Of a stretch of DNA of 64,000 nucleotides, positions 4,244-62,219 are shown in pieces (position 1 is the first letter of the stretch; every line of letters begins with the position of its first letter). The translations under genes were made by a program, and so were the position numbers. The notes under the pieces are model-generated. The model made no database searches and was not told the DNA's origin. It worked only from the letters and a program-made list of their open reading frames with translations. This DNA is from a virus (taxonomy: Duplodnaviria > Caudoviricetes). The stretch is from the IMG/VR virus record IMGVR_UViG_3300017780_003104, positions 128,001 through 192,000 of that record. The stretch is one strand, 5' to 3'.

Positions 4244-4267
4244 TTAAAACCGAACTATAATAGCGGC

Positions 4268-5500
4268 ATGGCAACTGAAAAAGTAAGACTAGTATTTTCT
4301 GACTTGGGATGTAATAGTTACAAGTATTGGGATGGTGAGCTACACGATGATGGTCGAGTAATATCAACTTTTGGCGTTGTTGGTGCAAAGAACCCACAAT
4401 CAAAGGATTTTGGTATTGTTGGTAGATCGTTCTTTGATAAGAAGATTCGTGAGAAGGAACGTAAGGGATATGAACGCGCTAAAGTACTAATGGAAGGTGC
4501 CACTACAGTAGTCAACAAATCATCCCTTGCTGATATCGCATTAAGTCAAATTAAACTGTCTGATACCAGTCTTAAAACTCTTGTTAAACGACTGGCTGAT
4601 AGCAATGTCCATAAGATCACTAATTCGACCAGTATTAGTTTTGATAATGGAATGTTCCAAACCCCATTGGGTATTGTTACCAAAGAGGGGATATCCGATG
4701 CTAGACTGTTACTGGATTTCTTCTTCAAAAATATTAAGAAGAATGGTCAAGATGATTTCAATGAAAAGATTGATTCATATCTTCGAATTATCCCAAGACC
4801 TAAAGGTAATGGATTACACTATGAAGACATTTTTCCGACATTGGAATCCGTCCAAAAAGAATCAGATGTTTTGGATGCTCTTGATAATAGTGTTGAACTT
4901 GCCATGAAACCAAAGGACGATGGAACGTCGAAGGTGGAAAGTGTGTTTAACCTTAATATGGCTATCGTGGAAGATGATAAGATTATCAAAGCGATTAAAG
5001 ATTGGTATACTAGGACCAATAAGGCAATGCATAATTACACATCGATCAAAATTGCTAATATTTACGGTGTCGATATCGTAGATTACAATAAGAATTTTAA
5101 ACAAGATGATAAAAACATCATTGAAGTTTGGCATGGTAGTGGTCAATCAAATATTCTTAGTATCTTGAAGTCTGGATTGTTCTGTAGCCCACCTAGTACT
5201 GCCGCTATTGCTGGTAAGATGTTTGGTAATGGTGTATACGGTTCCAAAACATCATCTAAAAGTTTAGGATATAGTCTTGGTAGATGGGGTCAGGGAAAAG
5301 GTGAAAGTGGTTGGCTTTTTGTTTGCGACTTCGCTATGGGAAATCCGTATTACCCGAATACCAGAGGTGGCTTAAACAAGATTCCTGATGGATATCATAG
5401 TTGTTGGGCATTACCTGAAAAAACAGGCTTGCTAAATGATGAACTCATCGTATACTCCGAAAAGCAGATCAAAATTAAATTTCTCGTAGAACTAAAATAA
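4268..5500 (+). CDS. WGR + PARP-regulatory + PARP catalytic ADP-ribosyltransferase
   Basis: WGR-like N-terminus (FGVVG..KERKGY); PLG/Y..IP regulatory segment; catalytic WHGS, GKMFGNGVY, SKSLGYS, NDELIVY (H-Y-E triad). Confidence 0.85.
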   Translation: MATEKVRLVFSDLGCNSYKYWDGELHDDGRVISTFGVVGAKNPQSKDFGIVGRSFFDKKIREKERKGYERAKVLMEGATTVVNKSSLADIALSQIKLSDTSLKTLVKRLADSNVHKITNSTSISFDNGMFQTPLGIVTKEGISDARLLLDFFFKNIKKNGQDDFNEKIDSYLRIIPRPKGNGLHYEDIFPTLESVQKESDVLDALDNSVELAMKPKDDGTSKVESVFNLNMAIVEDDKIIKAIKDWYTRTNKAMHNYTSIKIANIYGVDIVDYNKNFKQDDKNIIEVWHGSGQSNILSILKSGLFCSPPSTAAIAGKMFGNGVYGSKTSSKSLGYSLGRWGQGKGESGWLFVCDFAMGNPYYPNTRGGLNKIPDGYHSCWALPEKTGLLNDELIVYSEKQIKIKFLVELK

Positions 5501-5504
5501 AATT

Positions 5505-6044
5505 ATGAAACAAATAAACGCAATTACAGCAATCCTATTAGCACTTAAGAATATTAGAAACGTGCAATTTTCGATATATAATATCACCCTCGAAATTCGT
5601 GATCAGATGTATCTCGGAACCTACCAAATAGATTACACCAATTTCATTTCCCATGCGGAAGTCAAGAAGAATTTTGAGGAATTGGAATTGATGGGTCTTT
5701 TAGATGATTACACAGTAAGTCATAATGTTGATGGTTATAGACTGTATCAATTGAAACAAGAAATGGTAAACATTCCAGATGCTTCTGTGCCAACTCCAAT
5801 ACAATCCGCATTGGTTAGAGTTCAAGCAATTAGTCGTGCTAGTGTTATCCCAATGGATATTCAGAAGAAAATTTATACATACCTTAAAGGTAATGGATCG
5901 GTTTCCATGAAGCAGATTCAATCTCGCCTCAAGAATCAACCTTATACATGTAAGGATATTAAAAACTTTTTGGCCCAATTACAATTGATTGATCCTAATA
6001 CTACATCACTACCTGATAGCCAAGCTAAAACAATTAAAATCTAA
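5505..6044 (+). CDS. hypothetical protein
   Basis: ORF track. Confidence 0.6.
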   Translation: MKQINAITAILLALKNIRNVQFSIYNITLEIRDQMYLGTYQIDYTNFISHAEVKKNFEELELMGLLDDYTVSHNVDGYRLYQLKQEMVNIPDASVPTPIQSALVRVQAISRASVIPMDIQKKIYTYLKGNGSVSMKQIQSRLKNQPYTCKDIKNFLAQLQLIDPNTTSLPDSQAKTIKI

Positions 6045-6048
6045 TATT

Positions 6049-6210
6049 ATGAGAAACCTTAAAAAAAGATGGAGTGATCTCATATGGTATGAAAAGTTAG
6101 CAGCGACTCCCGGTGTTATTATCGTTGGATGTTCAGTAGTTGCAATATCACCAGTCTTGCTTTTTATGTATTGTATAATTATTACATTTGAATTACTGGA
6201 TTTTAGATGA
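6049..6210 (+). CDS. small membrane protein
   Basis: In-frame ATG at 6049 of the track ORF; hydrophobic stretch. Confidence 0.5.
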   Translation: MRNLKKRWSDLIWYEKLAATPGVIIVGCSVVAISPVLLFMYCIIITFELLDFR

Positions 6211-6230
6211 TTGTATGAGAGGATAATAAT

Positions 6231-6677
6231 ATGATTACGAAAATTAATGATGAATTGAAACAGGCAATGCGCGACAAGAACACGACTAAGTTGAATGTTC
6301 TTCGCGCATTGAAAACAGCTATTATGAATGCTTCTCTACAGAAGGGTAACGTAAATGAACCGTTATCGGAAGTTGAGGTTATTGGTATTATTAGGAAACA
6401 ACTATCACAACGACAAGATTCTATAGCTCAATTTGTTACTGCACAACGTAATGATTTAATTGCTACAGAAGAAGCAGAAGTAGAAGTCCTCAAAGAGTTT
6501 ATACCAGAGGATTTGTCGGATTTACAGTTAGAAACATACATCATCAATACAATTTCTGAGTTAGGTGCTACTAGTAAAAAGGATATGGGGAACGTTATCA
6601 AACGGGTTGCTCATATTGTTAATGGTCGTGCTGATAATAAGAAAATATCTAAAATGGTGGGTGAGAAATTACAATGA
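6231..6677 (+). CDS. GatB/YqeY domain protein
   Basis: KQAMRDK..LNVLRALK, RQDSIAQF..R.DL..E..E..VL.EFIP, KDMGNV. Confidence 0.9.
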   Translation: MITKINDELKQAMRDKNTTKLNVLRALKTAIMNASLQKGNVNEPLSEVEVIGIIRKQLSQRQDSIAQFVTAQRNDLIATEEAEVEVLKEFIPEDLSDLQLETYIINTISELGATSKKDMGNVIKRVAHIVNGRADNKKISKMVGEKLQ

Positions 6678-6967
6678 AATATATCCTCTTTCTTAATAAA
6701 GCATGGGGGGTTGATTTCATGTTAATCCGAAGACTTGAACGTGAAAAAATTGAGTATGATTATGTATCCTTATCTGATGAAGGACATGTGGACACCGAGT
6801 TGTATACTAAGTATGGGATAAGATCTACACCTTGTCTTTTGATTCTTGACAACGATGAGGTGAGTGATAAACTCAGTTCAACAGACGAAATCGTAGAATA
6901 TTTAAAAAATGTACAAAATACTAAAATTCCCGTGGGAACAGAGGACCAAACACTTCTGGGCAAGTGA
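6674..6967 (+). CDS. thioredoxin/glutaredoxin-fold protein (no CxxC)
   Basis: KYGIRSTPCLLIL cis-Pro-type motif; size. Confidence 0.5.
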   Translation: MKYILFLNKAWGVDFMLIRRLEREKIEYDYVSLSDEGHVDTELYTKYGIRSTPCLLILDNDEVSDKLSSTDEIVEYLKNVQNTKIPVGTEDQTLLGK

Positions 6968-7568
6968 TTGGCATAACTTCCATGACCCTAAAACTTGGAC
7001 TTCCCCTATTTGGGAAATGCGGGGATATAGCAATGCTGAAGAGGCATTAGAACAAACTCTCAGGACAACCAATGAAAAGGTTGGTGTGGATGATACCTTG
7101 TGGTATCTTGGTGATGGATTTCTTAATGCCACAGATGATCAATGCATTAATTGGTTGAGTAGAGTGAATTGCCAAAATATTTACTATTTGTTTGGTAATC
7201 ACGAATCCAATATGTATAGGATCTATAAGGAACAGGTCGCGGAACAATATGGGATTGGTGATGCTGAGATTTATCCCTTGAAGTATAAGAATGTCACATT
7301 CTTAGGAAATCATCAAGAAATTCAAATTGGTAAACAGATGATTACCATGAATCATTTCCCTTTAAGAATTTGGCACAAGGATAACCGTAGTGCTTGGATG
7401 CTTAGTGGGCATTCCCACTTACAAGATAAAGGTCGTAGACCAGATGCACCTTTTCAAAAAGGTCTTGATTGTGGTTGTGATTATAAAGTGGTGTGGAGTT
7501 TTTTGGAAATTGAAGATGTAATGTCAACCAAATCGATTCAAATTTTAGACCATAATAGGACTAGTTAA
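6909..7568 (+). CDS. calcineurin-like metallophosphoesterase
   Basis: SDWHNFH, LGDG, GNHE, NHFP, SGHSH motifs. Confidence 0.85.
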   Translation: MYKILKFPWEQRTKHFWASDWHNFHDPKTWTSPIWEMRGYSNAEEALEQTLRTTNEKVGVDDTLWYLGDGFLNATDDQCINWLSRVNCQNIYYLFGNHESNMYRIYKEQVAEQYGIGDAEIYPLKYKNVTFLGNHQEIQIGKQMITMNHFPLRIWHKDNRSAWMLSGHSHLQDKGRRPDAPFQKGLDCGCDYKVVWSFLEIEDVMSTKSIQILDHNRTS

Positions 7569-7570
7569 AT

Positions 7571-7792
7571 ATGACAGATGATGAATATGAAATGCGAATG
7601 GGTAAAGTCCGTAACAAGATGACGCAATTAAGAGAGGTTGAGAATTCTATGGAATCGACATTTCCAGATATTGACATTTCAAAAGAGTGGCGTAAACTGG
7701 CTTTAGAAGTAGAGGACATGATAAATGAAATCGAAGTGGATGATTTTCTCGTAAATGGTGCGGGAAATACTAGTATAGATATAATAGAATAA
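7571..7792 (+). CDS. hypothetical protein
   Basis: ORF track. Confidence 0.55.
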   Translation: MTDDEYEMRMGKVRNKMTQLREVENSMESTFPDIDISKEWRKLALEVEDMINEIEVDDFLVNGAGNTSIDIIE

Positions 7793-7801
7793 CAGAATAA
7801 T

Positions 7802-8032
7802 ATGAACGTAAATAAGCAAAAAAACAAACAGTGGATGAGAAATCGTGATCAATTGAAAAACCCAAAGGTATTCAATGTAACTATGGTTCGTAATCCAGAT
7901 GGAACATTCCACATGATTGGTGGGCAGAGTAAGGTTCTTGTTCGCAAGAATCAACACTCTAGCGAATGGGTAAACGTTGATACACGCGATCTTACTTGTG
8001 AGATGCGTAATAGTCGAATCTCTTCTTTCTAA
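7802..8032 (+). CDS. hypothetical protein
   Basis: ORF track. Confidence 0.6.
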   Translation: MNVNKQKNKQWMRNRDQLKNPKVFNVTMVRNPDGTFHMIGGQSKVLVRKNQHSSEWVNVDTRDLTCEMRNSRISSF

Positions 8033-8043
8033 GAAGAGATTAT

Positions 8044-8606
8044 AGAACCGAAGCAATAACACTGATAAAGTTAAGGTGCTTTTTCACCATTCGATATGGT
8101 GCGGTTCTCTATTGTGGTGGGGAAGCAGTTCCCCCTAGTAGGTAATGAGACTTAGCTCTTAATGGTGAAGACCGATAATAATAACGTTTAAACATCGGGA
8201 TAAACTACAGACGCATCTATTAAGAGTTTCTTGCGGATAAGTCTACCACATTAATTTTAAGGAAGTCCAAATAGGTAGCGGTTACACTCAAGCGCGATGA
8301 GTGTGAGAGAAAAGAATGACAATACTCTTAGTATTATATCAACTTTCGAAACGGTGAAAATCGTAAATTGCGGGTTCAAGTCCCGCTCCTTAAATCTTTG
8401 AAGTGTCGATGTTGAAGGAAACATATCGAAGTTTGTAAGATAGTTATGGAAAGGCGCATGGCCGAACCACTAAGAAAGTTGAGAAATCTTAACTAGGTTG
8501 GTAGCCTAGACTTACCATGTAGCCCATACGGAGTAATTGTCTAAACCTAATCTCGCCAGAGAAAAGTTACGGACTCCATAGTTGGTATCAAGCCCAACAC
8601 ACTTCA
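8044..8606 (+). ncRNA. cluster of structured ncRNAs, two with tRNA-like acceptor and T-arm ends (8257-8394, 8400-8606)
   Basis: No ORF; TTAAGGA/TCCTTAA with GCGGG-TTCAAGT-CCCGC; GAAGTGT/ACACTTC with GTTGG-TATCAAGC-CCAAC. Confidence 0.6.
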
Positions 8607-8640
8607 TAATTTTTAATTAAAACCGAACTATAATTTGGTT

Positions 8641-9066
8641 ATGAAACGAGACGAGTTACAAAAAATTCTAAGAGCATATATGGAAGAACATGGTGCTATG
8701 GAATTTCTATGGACTGTTGATGATGAACTTCTACGTCCAACTATTCATAAGAATAGACATGAAATGATTTGTTCGACTGGAGATTTTAGAGGTAACTTTG
8801 ATTATGATCGTGGGTTCTTGGTAGTTTCCATTTCAGTATATTGGGAAAGGGATGAATTATATTCCGTTAATATGCCTATTTTCAATATCGATGATGGTAT
8901 TTGGAGAGCTGTTTCTAAGAATTTTGACACTAAAGAAGAGGCTCAAGAATTAGCAGATAAAGTGGCTTCAGGTTTTGTTAAAAACTTTGGAACTAAGCTT
9001 CCAACCGAAGATGAACTAAATGAATTTCTTCGTCCCTTTGGTATGTATGGTCATTCAGAAGGTTAA
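8641..9066 (+). CDS. hypothetical protein
   Basis: ATG 6 nt after TATAAT (8641 rather than the track start 8635). Confidence 0.7.
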   Translation: MKRDELQKILRAYMEEHGAMEFLWTVDDELLRPTIHKNRHEMICSTGDFRGNFDYDRGFLVVSISVYWERDELYSVNMPIFNIDDGIWRAVSKNFDTKEEAQELADKVASGFVKNFGTKLPTEDELNEFLRPFGMYGHSEG

Positions 9067-9090
9067 TTAAAACCGAAGTATAGTAGTGAT

Positions 9091-9324
9091 ATGAAAATCA
9101 TCACCACACGCCTTAGAGTCATGCGATACAATTATCGAAATGATTGGAAAGCTGTTCAAATTCTACTCAAATATTATTATATTTTTGGCTTTAAATTTTT
9201 CGAAGTAGAATTAGATAGGGAAGATGTTCCAAGGCATGTGGTTCTTGCCAATGCATGTTTTGGCGATACGAGTGGATGGACTTCAAAATTTATGCCCTTT
9301 GAAAAAGGAGGATGGAAAGACTAA
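9091..9324 (+). CDS. hypothetical protein
   Basis: ORF track; promoter 6 nt upstream. Confidence 0.65.
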   Translation: MKIITTRLRVMRYNYRNDWKAVQILLKYYYIFGFKFFEVELDREDVPRHVVLANACFGDTSGWTSKFMPFEKGGWKD

Positions 9325-62144: not shown

Positions 62145-62219
62145 TGGTGGGAATGGAGAATTTTGCAATCTCAACCTTCTGAATGTAAATCAGTTGCTCC
62201 ACTTTTGAGCTACACTCCC
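62145..62219 (-). tRNA. tRNA-Val(UAC) with atypical T-loop
   Basis: GGGAGTG/CATTCCC-A-CCA; loop TT-TAC-AT; T-loop lacks TTC. Confidence 0.8.

Follow-up and report, generated by a model that had tools for sequence, protein, structure and literature searches.

Among the systems described so far, the closest to the locus reported here are the stable RNAs of phages T4 and T5. In the T4 record (AF158101, 70908-71171) the genes rnaC (species 1 RNA, 139 nt) and rnaD (species 2, 119 nt) are located directly after the gene for tRNA-Arg, and reviews assign no role to their products RNAC and RNAD (PMC3014915, PMC9697503). The T5 record (AY543070, 30284-33949) contains RNA1, RNA2 and RNA3 (144, 125 and 73 nt, respectively), which are annotated as 'tRNA-like stable RNA with unknown functions'. 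Among the substrates of RNase P, which recognises the tRNA domain, are also tmRNA and other RNAs that are not tRNAs (PMC11143913). The YrlA Y RNAs (RF02553), which are bound by Ro60/Rsr, imitate the elbow of tRNA with a T arm and a D-loop-like part, have no decoding anticodon and are linked to RNA repair genes, traits that they share with the units described below. The tRNA body has also been put to use in RNA engineering, where tRNA scaffolds and polycistronic tRNA-guide arrays employ it for excision by RNase P, for 3' processing and for the stability of the cargo.

The present locus is situated in the genome of an uncultured phage (Duplodnaviria; Caudoviricetes) of 211,724 bp (~212 kb) with direct terminal repeats and a GC content of ~35% (IMG/VR record IMGVR_UViG_3300017780_003104). 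The window, i.e. the whole stretch of DNA that was analysed, comprises 64,000 nucleotides and corresponds to bases 128001-192000 of this record. According to ARAGORN the phage genome has 22 tRNA genes; a homologue of rIIA is also encoded, and the set of tRNA and RNA-repair genes is very large. It was originally predicted that tandem non-coding RNAs with tRNA-like ends and large inserts are encoded at positions 8044-8606 of the window.

Results

Position and content of the gene-free gap

ORF76 and a 140-aa ORF that has no family match are separated by a gene-free gap of 611 nt (window positions 8033-8643), in which four structured-RNA units, A, X, B and C, are tightly packed (Table 1). The spacers between the units are 3-6 nt long and resemble those of a tRNA cluster; the closest tRNA gene is ~23 kb away. 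Coding sequence was considered as the content of the gap and rejected, as the short ORFs are not conserved in two relatives. No ORF, including a 55-aa antisense ORF at 8257-8424, is common to the arrays of the window and of the related phages L085 and L089.

The promoter-like motif that precedes the 140-aa ORF is 16 nt long and occurs in 32 copies in the genome, almost always 5-6 nt before an ATG. Copies at 4246 and 8619 bracket the array and the genes that lie upstream of it. Since the last upstream copy is the one at 4246, the array probably constitutes the 3' end of a unit that extends from 4246 to 8606. No terminator-like site was predicted within 7500-9200.

Table 1. Features of the array and its surroundings. 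Positions refer to the window; the last three rows give the order of the units that follow the ORF76 homologue.
Feature	Position	Strand	Remarks
PARP-like protein	4268-5500	+	upstream of gap
YqeY-domain protein	6231-6677	+	upstream of gap
Calcineurin-type phosphoesterase (metallophosphoesterase)	6909-7568	+	upstream of gap
ORF76, second of two small ORFs after the phosphoesterase	7802-8032	+	immediately upstream of gap
A, D-armless tRNA-like RNA	8044-8109	+	65 nt + discriminator
A acceptor stem, AGAACCG/CGGTTCT	8044-8050/8102-8108	+	read from the sequence
A extended arm	8051-8081	+	4 + 4 bp, internal loop, apical loop CTGATAA (8062-8068)
A T arm, CACCA-TTCGATA-TGGTG	8085-8101	+	canonical; 3-nt linker before it
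X, closed multi-helix RNA	8113-8250	+	138 nt, no T arm
X closing stem, TGTGGTGG/CTACCACA	8113-8120/8243-8250	+	8 bp, one G-U
B, tRNA-framed RNA	8257-8394	+	137 nt + discriminator
B acceptor stem, TTAAGGA/TCCTTAA	8257-8263/8387-8393	+	7 perfect bp
B D-loop-like segment, AAATAGGTAGC	8264-8281	+	invariant, class II tRNA-Leu type
B 9-bp arm	8282-8290/8298-8306	+	7-nt loop 8291-8297; anticodon-arm position; loop core CGCG kept
B conserved 5-bp hairpin	8351-8364	+	preceded by variable hairpin region
B T arm, GCGGG-TTCAAGT-CCCGC	8370-8386	+	106 nt enclosed
C, cloverleaf-like RNA	8400-8606	+	206 nt + discriminator
C acceptor stem, GAAGTGT/ACACTTC	8400-8406/8599-8605	+	
C D-arm-like hairpin, ATGT-TGAAGGAA-ACAT	8409-8424	+	GG loop
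C long branched arm	8430-8575	+	~140 nt, several hairpins
C hairpin, CTAGG-TTGGTAG-CCTAG	8493-8509	+	5 bp, 7-nt loop, inside branched arm
C T-like arm, GTTGG/CCAAC, loop TATCAAGC	8581-8598	+	8-nt loop; 5-nt linker before; 175 nt enclosed
Promoter-like motif AAAACCGAACTATAAT, then ATG of next ORF (8644)	8619-8646	+	boundary feature, outside RNA units
140-aa ORF, no family match	8644-9066	+	immediately downstream of gap
RNA ligase PF09414	9224-9961	+	downstream of 140-aa ORF
Layout, window			A-X-B-C
Layout, L085			A-Y-B, then 58-aa ORF
Layout, L089			A-Y-X-D-Z-B-C, then promoter motif, ligase homologue start (KYNRTxHLPWS)

Structure of the units

The four stem pairs on which the original prediction was based are all present in the sequence at the positions given for them, and so are the canonical T arm described for B and the T-like arm described for C. 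The canonical T arm of A had not been mentioned. The D and anticodon arms were thought to be replaced by large inserts. Such inserts were indeed found in B and C, but B keeps a D-loop-like segment and a 9-bp arm, and C keeps a D-arm-like hairpin. It was likewise only partly right that no recognisable anticodon arm is present: A has an anticodon-like loop, and in B a 9-bp arm with a 7-nt loop takes the position of the anticodon arm.

The apical loop of A is identical to the anticodon loop of the phage tRNA-Ile(GAU) and to that of no other among the 22 tRNAs of the phage, and it is invariant in the three lineages that were compared (see below). In B the invariant segment AGTCCAAAT(n)GGT(n)AGCGGTTA resembles the D arm of a class II tRNA-Leu (cf. 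the phage tRNA-Leu(taa)), and the first acceptor pair is U-A in all three lineages. A full tRNA cloverleaf, with a 5-bp anticodon stem and a 7-nt loop that carries U33, was not found. The arm of B at the anticodon position is 9 bp long and its loop, AGCGCGA in the window phage, is without U33; in B, moreover, A8 takes the place of U8 and the D stem is weak, and A is without a D arm. In A, B and C alike, position 3-70 of the acceptor stem is an A-U pair, and the G3-U70 pair of the tmRNA type is absent. The conserved motifs of X are ATGGTGAAGACCGATAA, ACTAYAGACGC and CTTGCGGAT.

Comparison with chance and with known RNA families

A 7-bp acceptor stem that directly abuts a T arm with a TTCRANN loop occurs twice in the gap, exactly in A and in B; C has the same geometry with an 8-nt loop. 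When the 611-nt gap was shuffled 20,000 times with its dinucleotides preserved, only 8 of the shuffles gave even one such match. A scan of the whole genome for this acceptor/T-arm arrangement (T stem of 5 bp) returned the real tRNAs, A and B, and otherwise two AT-only matches and one match overlapping a tRNA-Ser. The geometry thus goes far beyond chance. All four single sequences folded more stably than their shuffles, most clearly A (z-score -3.6), followed by C (-2.5), B (-2.3) and X (-1.9).

The scan with Rfam and ARAGORN that had been proposed along with the original prediction yielded no call for a tRNA, tmRNA, YrlA RNA or group I intron. No Rfam family matched in the gap at the gathering threshold or at E<=10. 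The tRNA model (RF00005) had no match in 7900-8750 even at E<=10, and at this same value neither the YrlA model (RF02553) nor the group I intron model (RF00028) gave a match. ARAGORN made no call in the gap, with or without introns and with tmRNA enabled. As no tmRNA was found in the whole genome by ARAGORN and none by Rfam, and as the G3-U70 pair is absent, the suggested resemblance to tmRNA was not borne out. The flanks of C do not restore an anticodon stem-loop in the way of a group I intron, and known group I introns are longer than the 106-175 nt inserts present here. The ends of the units form an acceptor stem and not the Ro60-binding stem of YrlA RNAs.

Covariation in related phages

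A and B are present in two related uncultured phages (L085/L086 and L089), and L089 additionally has X and C. L085 and L086 are IMG/VR contigs with identical arrays that were reached with ORF76 as the anchor; L089, the third lineage, was reached via the conserved motif of A. The comparison covers three independent lineages for A and B and two for X and C; the counts below are not probabilities, yet the contrast with the slid controls is large.

In B (homologues L085:3412-3567 and L089:305-452(-)), which is 67-72% identical between the three lineages, 78 of the 78 aligned pair positions in the four specified helices are standard pairs. When the 3' partners were slid by 1-3 columns, 33-47% of the positions were paired. 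Both bases have changed in 9 pairs, of which 4 belong to the 9-bp arm, 3 to the acceptor stem and 2 to the T stem. The slid controls had 0-1 such pairs, and the observed value was reached by none of 500 column shuffles. In A (homologues L085:3240-3308 and L089:880-945(-)), 59 of the 60 aligned positions are base-paired; double changes affect 7 pairs, among them 4 of the 5 pairs in the T stem. The homologue of X (L089:632-772(-)) has ~66% identity and differs in 7 pairs on both sides, as judged from these two lineages only. The homologue of C (L089:93-299(-)) is 95% identical, against 66-79% for the flanks. All but one of the differences are found in one hairpin, where they are compensatorily swapped, and the helices of the frame are invariant. 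This identity indicates strong conservation of C and says little on its other helices. Covariation was thus seen in each helix of the frames of A and B, and also in X. In some lineages G-U pairs occur that are compatible with the + strand alone, which fixes the strand as +. An attP-type tRNA fragment was considered as well and rejected, because both acceptor strands exist and covary.

Covariation in two related phages thus gives strong support to the core of the original prediction, structured non-coding RNA genes with tRNA-like ends. A want of covariation in relatives had been named as part of the evidence that would speak against it; instead, the helices are kept and compensatory changes are frequent. 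Judged from the aligned sequences, it is well supported that the locus is a real set of conserved, structured, non-coding RNA genes on the + strand.

Layout of the array in relatives and searches for further members

The differing layouts of the relatives (Table 1) show that the array is modular: its units can give way to other RNAs, to a mini-gene or to a homing-endonuclease gene. In L085 the slot of X holds the unrelated hairpin Y, and C is absent and has the 58-aa ORF in its place. Y and Z are closed hairpin RNAs, the former with 4 pairs changed on both sides, and D is a 77-nt tRNA-like unit of the L089 array. The closest complete relative (G001/L009; ligase identity, 78%) has none of the four elements, and a 269-aa ORF of the LAGLIDADG type is found there exactly at the array site. 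This implies that the elements are dispensable.

A DNA search with the whole region (blastn) against GenBank phages gave no homologue, tblastn of ORF76 gave no match, and exact 3'-end patterns had no match in IMG/VR. ORF76 has 37 homologues in a large protein collection, which indicates that more relatives exist. In metagenome contigs the pattern of B was found only in L109, which is the L089 contig, besides 24 chance hits to coding DNA; the two hits from 185,579 prokaryote genomes were likewise chance matches to coding DNA. In IMG/VR the X motif was found in L089 alone. The covariance models R1 (built on B) and R2 (built on A) detected no further members in 50 related jumbo-phage records or in the phage's own genome, and the weak R1 matches fell on ordinary tRNAs, on a tmRNA or on other tRNA-like genes that are oversize. 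Searched as DNA against the 50 jumbo-phage records, C was found in L089 only; a 20-nt match in G004 is apparently due to chance. The flanking 140-aa ORF led to no relatives when it was used as a synteny anchor.

Oversize tRNA-like genes are held by other jumbo phages also. In G046, for instance, a tmRNA is accompanied by four genes which ARAGORN reads solely as 'intron' tRNAs, and in a scan of our own acceptor/T-arm units of 96-155 nt were seen near the ligase in L055, L058, L059 and L070.

Discussion

Proposed processing of the array

The reading that is favoured here is that of an array of four RNAs, in which a tRNA frame would serve processing and stability and the inserts would be the working parts. 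Taken with the processing and the role that it implies, it is considered fairly probable. The array would be transcribed as the tail of an operon that begins with the 4246 copy of the promoter-like motif and encodes the PARP-like protein, the YqeY-domain protein, the metallophosphoesterase and ORF76. RNase P would cleave on the 5' side of each acceptor stem, and these cuts would at the same time free each preceding unit at its 3' side and release X from between A and B. Exonucleases would trim the units down to the discriminator, after which CCA might be added by the PolyA_pol-family enzyme of the phage or by that of the host. The frame of A, B and C (acceptor stem and T arm, in B and C also a D-arm-like part) would thus account for processing and stability, while the inserted domains would do the work.

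Processing by RNase P/Z and addition of CCA, as originally proposed, are plausible for these units because of the tRNA-cluster-like spacers, the phage tRNAs that are devoid of CCA and the presence of a PolyA_pol enzyme. An encoded CCA is absent from 15 of the 22 genuine phage tRNAs, and a PolyA_pol-family gene for an enzyme of the CCA-adding type is present at genome position 183209; a CCA-addition pathway must therefore already serve the phage tRNAs. T4 RNAC and T5 RNA1/RNA2, which have the layout found in the array, were also counted toward this plausibility. In view of A8 and the weak D stem in B and the 8-nt T loop in C, folding into an L-shape and recognition by RNase P and the CCA enzyme are not guaranteed.

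Other explanations of the array

If the units were tRNA pseudogenes in decay, or tRNA genes disrupted by insertion and functionless at present, it would be understandable that ARAGORN and Rfam make no tRNA call, that the frame of B is tRNA-Leu-like, that the T loop of C has one extra base and that the closest complete relative is without the units. Neutral decay would, however, break helices. The helices are kept in all but one of the aligned pairs of A and B across 67-79% identity, with 7 and 9 compensatory pairs, respectively, and the loops and the D-loop-like segment are invariant. This largely refutes decay, which is regarded as most improbable. A function in translation, with A as a D-armless tRNA-Ile that decodes, C as an intron-containing tRNA or one of the units as a small tmRNA, is hardly to be expected either. 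The exact tRNA-Ile(GAU) loop of A is about as far from the junction as would be expected, and C has the topology of a cloverleaf with a 5-nt linker that resembles a variable loop. Against this stand the lack of any match to the tRNA, tmRNA and group I intron models of Rfam at E<=10, the silence of ARAGORN with introns and tmRNA enabled, the absence of G3-U70 from every unit and of U33 from the loop of B in the window phage, and the fact that C minus its insert leaves no 5-bp anticodon stem and loop. We know of no D-armless tRNA that functions with bacterial ribosomes or EF-Tu, and this counts against A as a decoding tRNA.

The structures could also act in cis as punctuation of the transcript, comparable to the tRNA punctuation of mitochondria, and define or protect the 3' end of the upstream mRNA, in which case the excised pieces would be functionless. 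The array ends its transcription unit right before the next promoter motif, with no intrinsic terminator predicted, and tRNA-like ends suffice for cutting by RNase P (PMC11143913). A single tRNA-like element would be enough for this purpose, yet three are present in addition to X. The inserts moreover covary (4 double changes in the 9-bp arm of B, in which CGCG is kept, and 7 in X), the loop of A does not vary, and C is conserved far beyond its flanks, so that punctuation appears unlikely. Still less is to be said for the units as Y-RNA-like partners of the phage's own Ro60-like protein, which is encoded ~14 kb downstream; we hold this to be quite improbable. The gene is followed by an array of nine RNA units (24.5-25.4 kb) in the same genome, the 7-mer CTGATAA of the A loop also forms the linker there, and Y RNAs of the YrlA type mimic tRNA. 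The 7-mer is, however, merely ~1.8-fold enriched genome-wide, and the handle of the Ro60-side array, a closing stem followed by CAGCAA(A), is missing from all four units. R1 and R2 detect no paralogues in the Ro60 array, no YrlA match was obtained at E<=10, and the topology is opposite.

Possible role of the RNAs

Within the favoured reading of a tRNA-framed array with working inserts, the role of the RNAs is the least certain step. They may be tRNA look-alikes that bind or distract tRNA-directed proteins of the host or the phage. This is suggested by the very large set of tRNA and RNA-repair genes and by the exact tRNA-Ile(GAU) loop of A, and it is offered as a tentative proposal that we consider possible but doubtful. 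In an extended and rather improbable form of it, the locus would be a recombining library of cassettes, each a tRNA-framed decoy that soaks up host defence proteins which cut or modify tRNA. The baits would be the tRNA-Ile(GAU) loop in A, the Thr(GGU)-like stem-loop in C and the conserved CGCG loop in B. Units would be swapped by endonuclease-driven recombination, which would explain why C is 95% identical amid flanks of ~70%, and the repair enzymes encoded nearby would act on the same targets. If the RNAs were such decoys, a function would be at hand for the 50-year-old puzzle of the T4 and T5 'stable RNA'. Handles for experiments are provided by the differences in units between relatives, by the near-identical C and by the copy of an anticodon loop on the D-armless A.

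Comparison with the stable RNAs of T4 and T5 and with other systems

The layout of the T4 and T5 stable RNAs was found in three of the units, which have a closing stem and a T arm around an insert and are spaced by 3-6 nt. R1 detected no match at E<=1 on RNA1, RNA2 or RNA3 of T5 (best score in the region, 17.6 bits). On T4 rnaC it matched the T arm alone (8.4 bits), and neither rnaC nor rnaD showed homology by sequence or model. The best match of R1 in the T4 tRNA region was tRNA-Leu, in line with the Leu-like frame of B. As the design is the same and homology was not detected by R1, the units are, on present sequence evidence, to be classed with the 'tRNA-like stable RNA' kind of T4 and T5, as new sequence families within it and not as a new kind. 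Of the 'novel RNAs' that had been predicted, the novelty therefore stands for the families, whereas the kind is already annotated in T4 and T5.

T4 rnaC shares with the tRNA-framed units a canonical T arm (CCGGG-UUCGAAU-CCCGG) and an acceptor-like closing stem around ~105 nt. Its insert consists of two hairpins and its closing stem has two U-U mismatches, whereas the 7-bp stems of A, B and C are perfect. T4 rnaD has no T arm, as is the case for X. The two T4 genes lie head-to-tail next to a tRNA gene with spacers of a few nt, a packing like that of the array, and the homing endonuclease gene segB in the rnaC/rnaD cluster has its parallel in the LAGLIDADG ORF at the array site of L009. The T4 genes are, however, inside a tRNA cluster, whereas the present array appears to be at the end of an operon with genes of the RNA-repair type.

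RNA1 and RNA2 of T5 are built like B: an acceptor stem and a canonical T arm frame a large structured insert, and there are additional hairpins and a D arm of the class II (Leu-like) type. RNAIII, RNAI and RNA1 are contiguous, so that tRNA-like units are mixed with units that are not tRNA-like, as in the array; RNAIV also belongs to the T5 set. Genes for HNH endonucleases are interspersed among the T5 stable RNAs, and a homing-endonuclease gene likewise occurs at this locus in one relative. An exact copy of an anticodon loop on a D-armless frame, as in A, is not known for any T5 stable RNA. The T5 RNAs are embedded among tRNA genes, unlike the present array. Families of the kind of T4 RNAC and RNAD and of T5 RNA1-3, RNAI, RNAIII and RNAIV are thus now seen in a different setting, outside a tRNA cluster, at a probable operon end and next to an RNA ligase.

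The YrlA RNAs, which share the imitation of tRNA, are closed at the acceptor and open at the anticodon side, whereas the units described here are open at the acceptor end. The engineered tRNA scaffolds are man-made and carry their cargo in the anticodon arm or between tRNAs, whereas the present design is natural; the locus may accordingly be regarded as a natural example of the 'tRNA scaffold' principle of RNA engineering.

Conservation of element C and recurring motifs

Element C, a cloverleaf-like RNA with a long branched arm, was found to be 95% identical to its counterpart in L089, a contig of a related uncultured phage that also carries the RNA array, whereas the flanking units and ORF76, the small ORF directly before the array, were just 66-79% identical between the two phages. 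Because of this difference, comparison of the sequences suggests that C is either a cassette that was exchanged recently or under unusually strong constraint.

CTGATAA forms both the loop of A, the D-armless tRNA-like RNA of the array, and the anticodon loop in the phage's own tRNA-Ile(GAU). The same 7-mer recurs as an inter-unit linker in the separate RNA array beside the Ro60-like gene, and genome-wide 42 copies are present on the + strand versus ~24 expected. Another motif, aattAAAACCGAAnTAyAAT, occurs 32 times in the genome and is followed 5-6 nt further by an ATG in almost all copies. Judged from this arrangement, it looks like a phage-specific promoter, in which case the mRNAs would be leaderless or near-leaderless.

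Positions of the features
Feature	Sequence	Position (strand)
LAGLIDADG-type ORF	L009	3830-4639
Element C	window	8400-8606
Counterpart of C	L089	93-299 (-)
Loop of A	window	8062-8068
CTGATAA linkers	window	24607, 24650, 24784, 25390
Promoter-like motif	window	336, 1375, 3760, 4246, 8619, 11330, 13545, 15718, 22606, 26358 and others
PARP-domain gene	window	4268-5500
PolyA_pol match	genome	183209-183574 (window about 55209)
tRNA (CTA)	genome	196159-196232 (beyond window)
Rfam tRNA match	window	62148-62219 (-)
G046 tRNA cluster	L127	604-962

Other phage genes

The first gene of the putative operon with the RNA array at its end encodes a 410-aa protein, in which a PARP catalytic domain was recognised (E 7.5e-25), together with weak matches to PARP_reg and WGR. 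A 499-aa ORF matching PolyA_pol (PF01743; 91.6 bits) is a candidate for the phage CCA-adding enzyme. The phage also has a tRNA of the amber-suppressor type (anticodon CTA; labelled 'Pyl' by ARAGORN) and an Rfam tRNA match without an ARAGORN call.

Comparison with other phages

Oversize tRNA-like genes seem to be common in jumbo phages. The tRNA cluster of the 394-kb phage G046 (L117/L127) includes an ARAGORN-called tmRNA and four tRNA-like genes of 107-125 nt, which ARAGORN reads solely as intron-containing tRNAs.

In L009, the closest complete relative, a 269-aa LAGLIDADG-type homing-endonuclease ORF occupies the exact site that is taken in the window phage by the RNA array and the 140-aa ORF directly after it. 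This is paralleled by segB within the tRNA cluster of T4 and by the HNH genes within that of T5.
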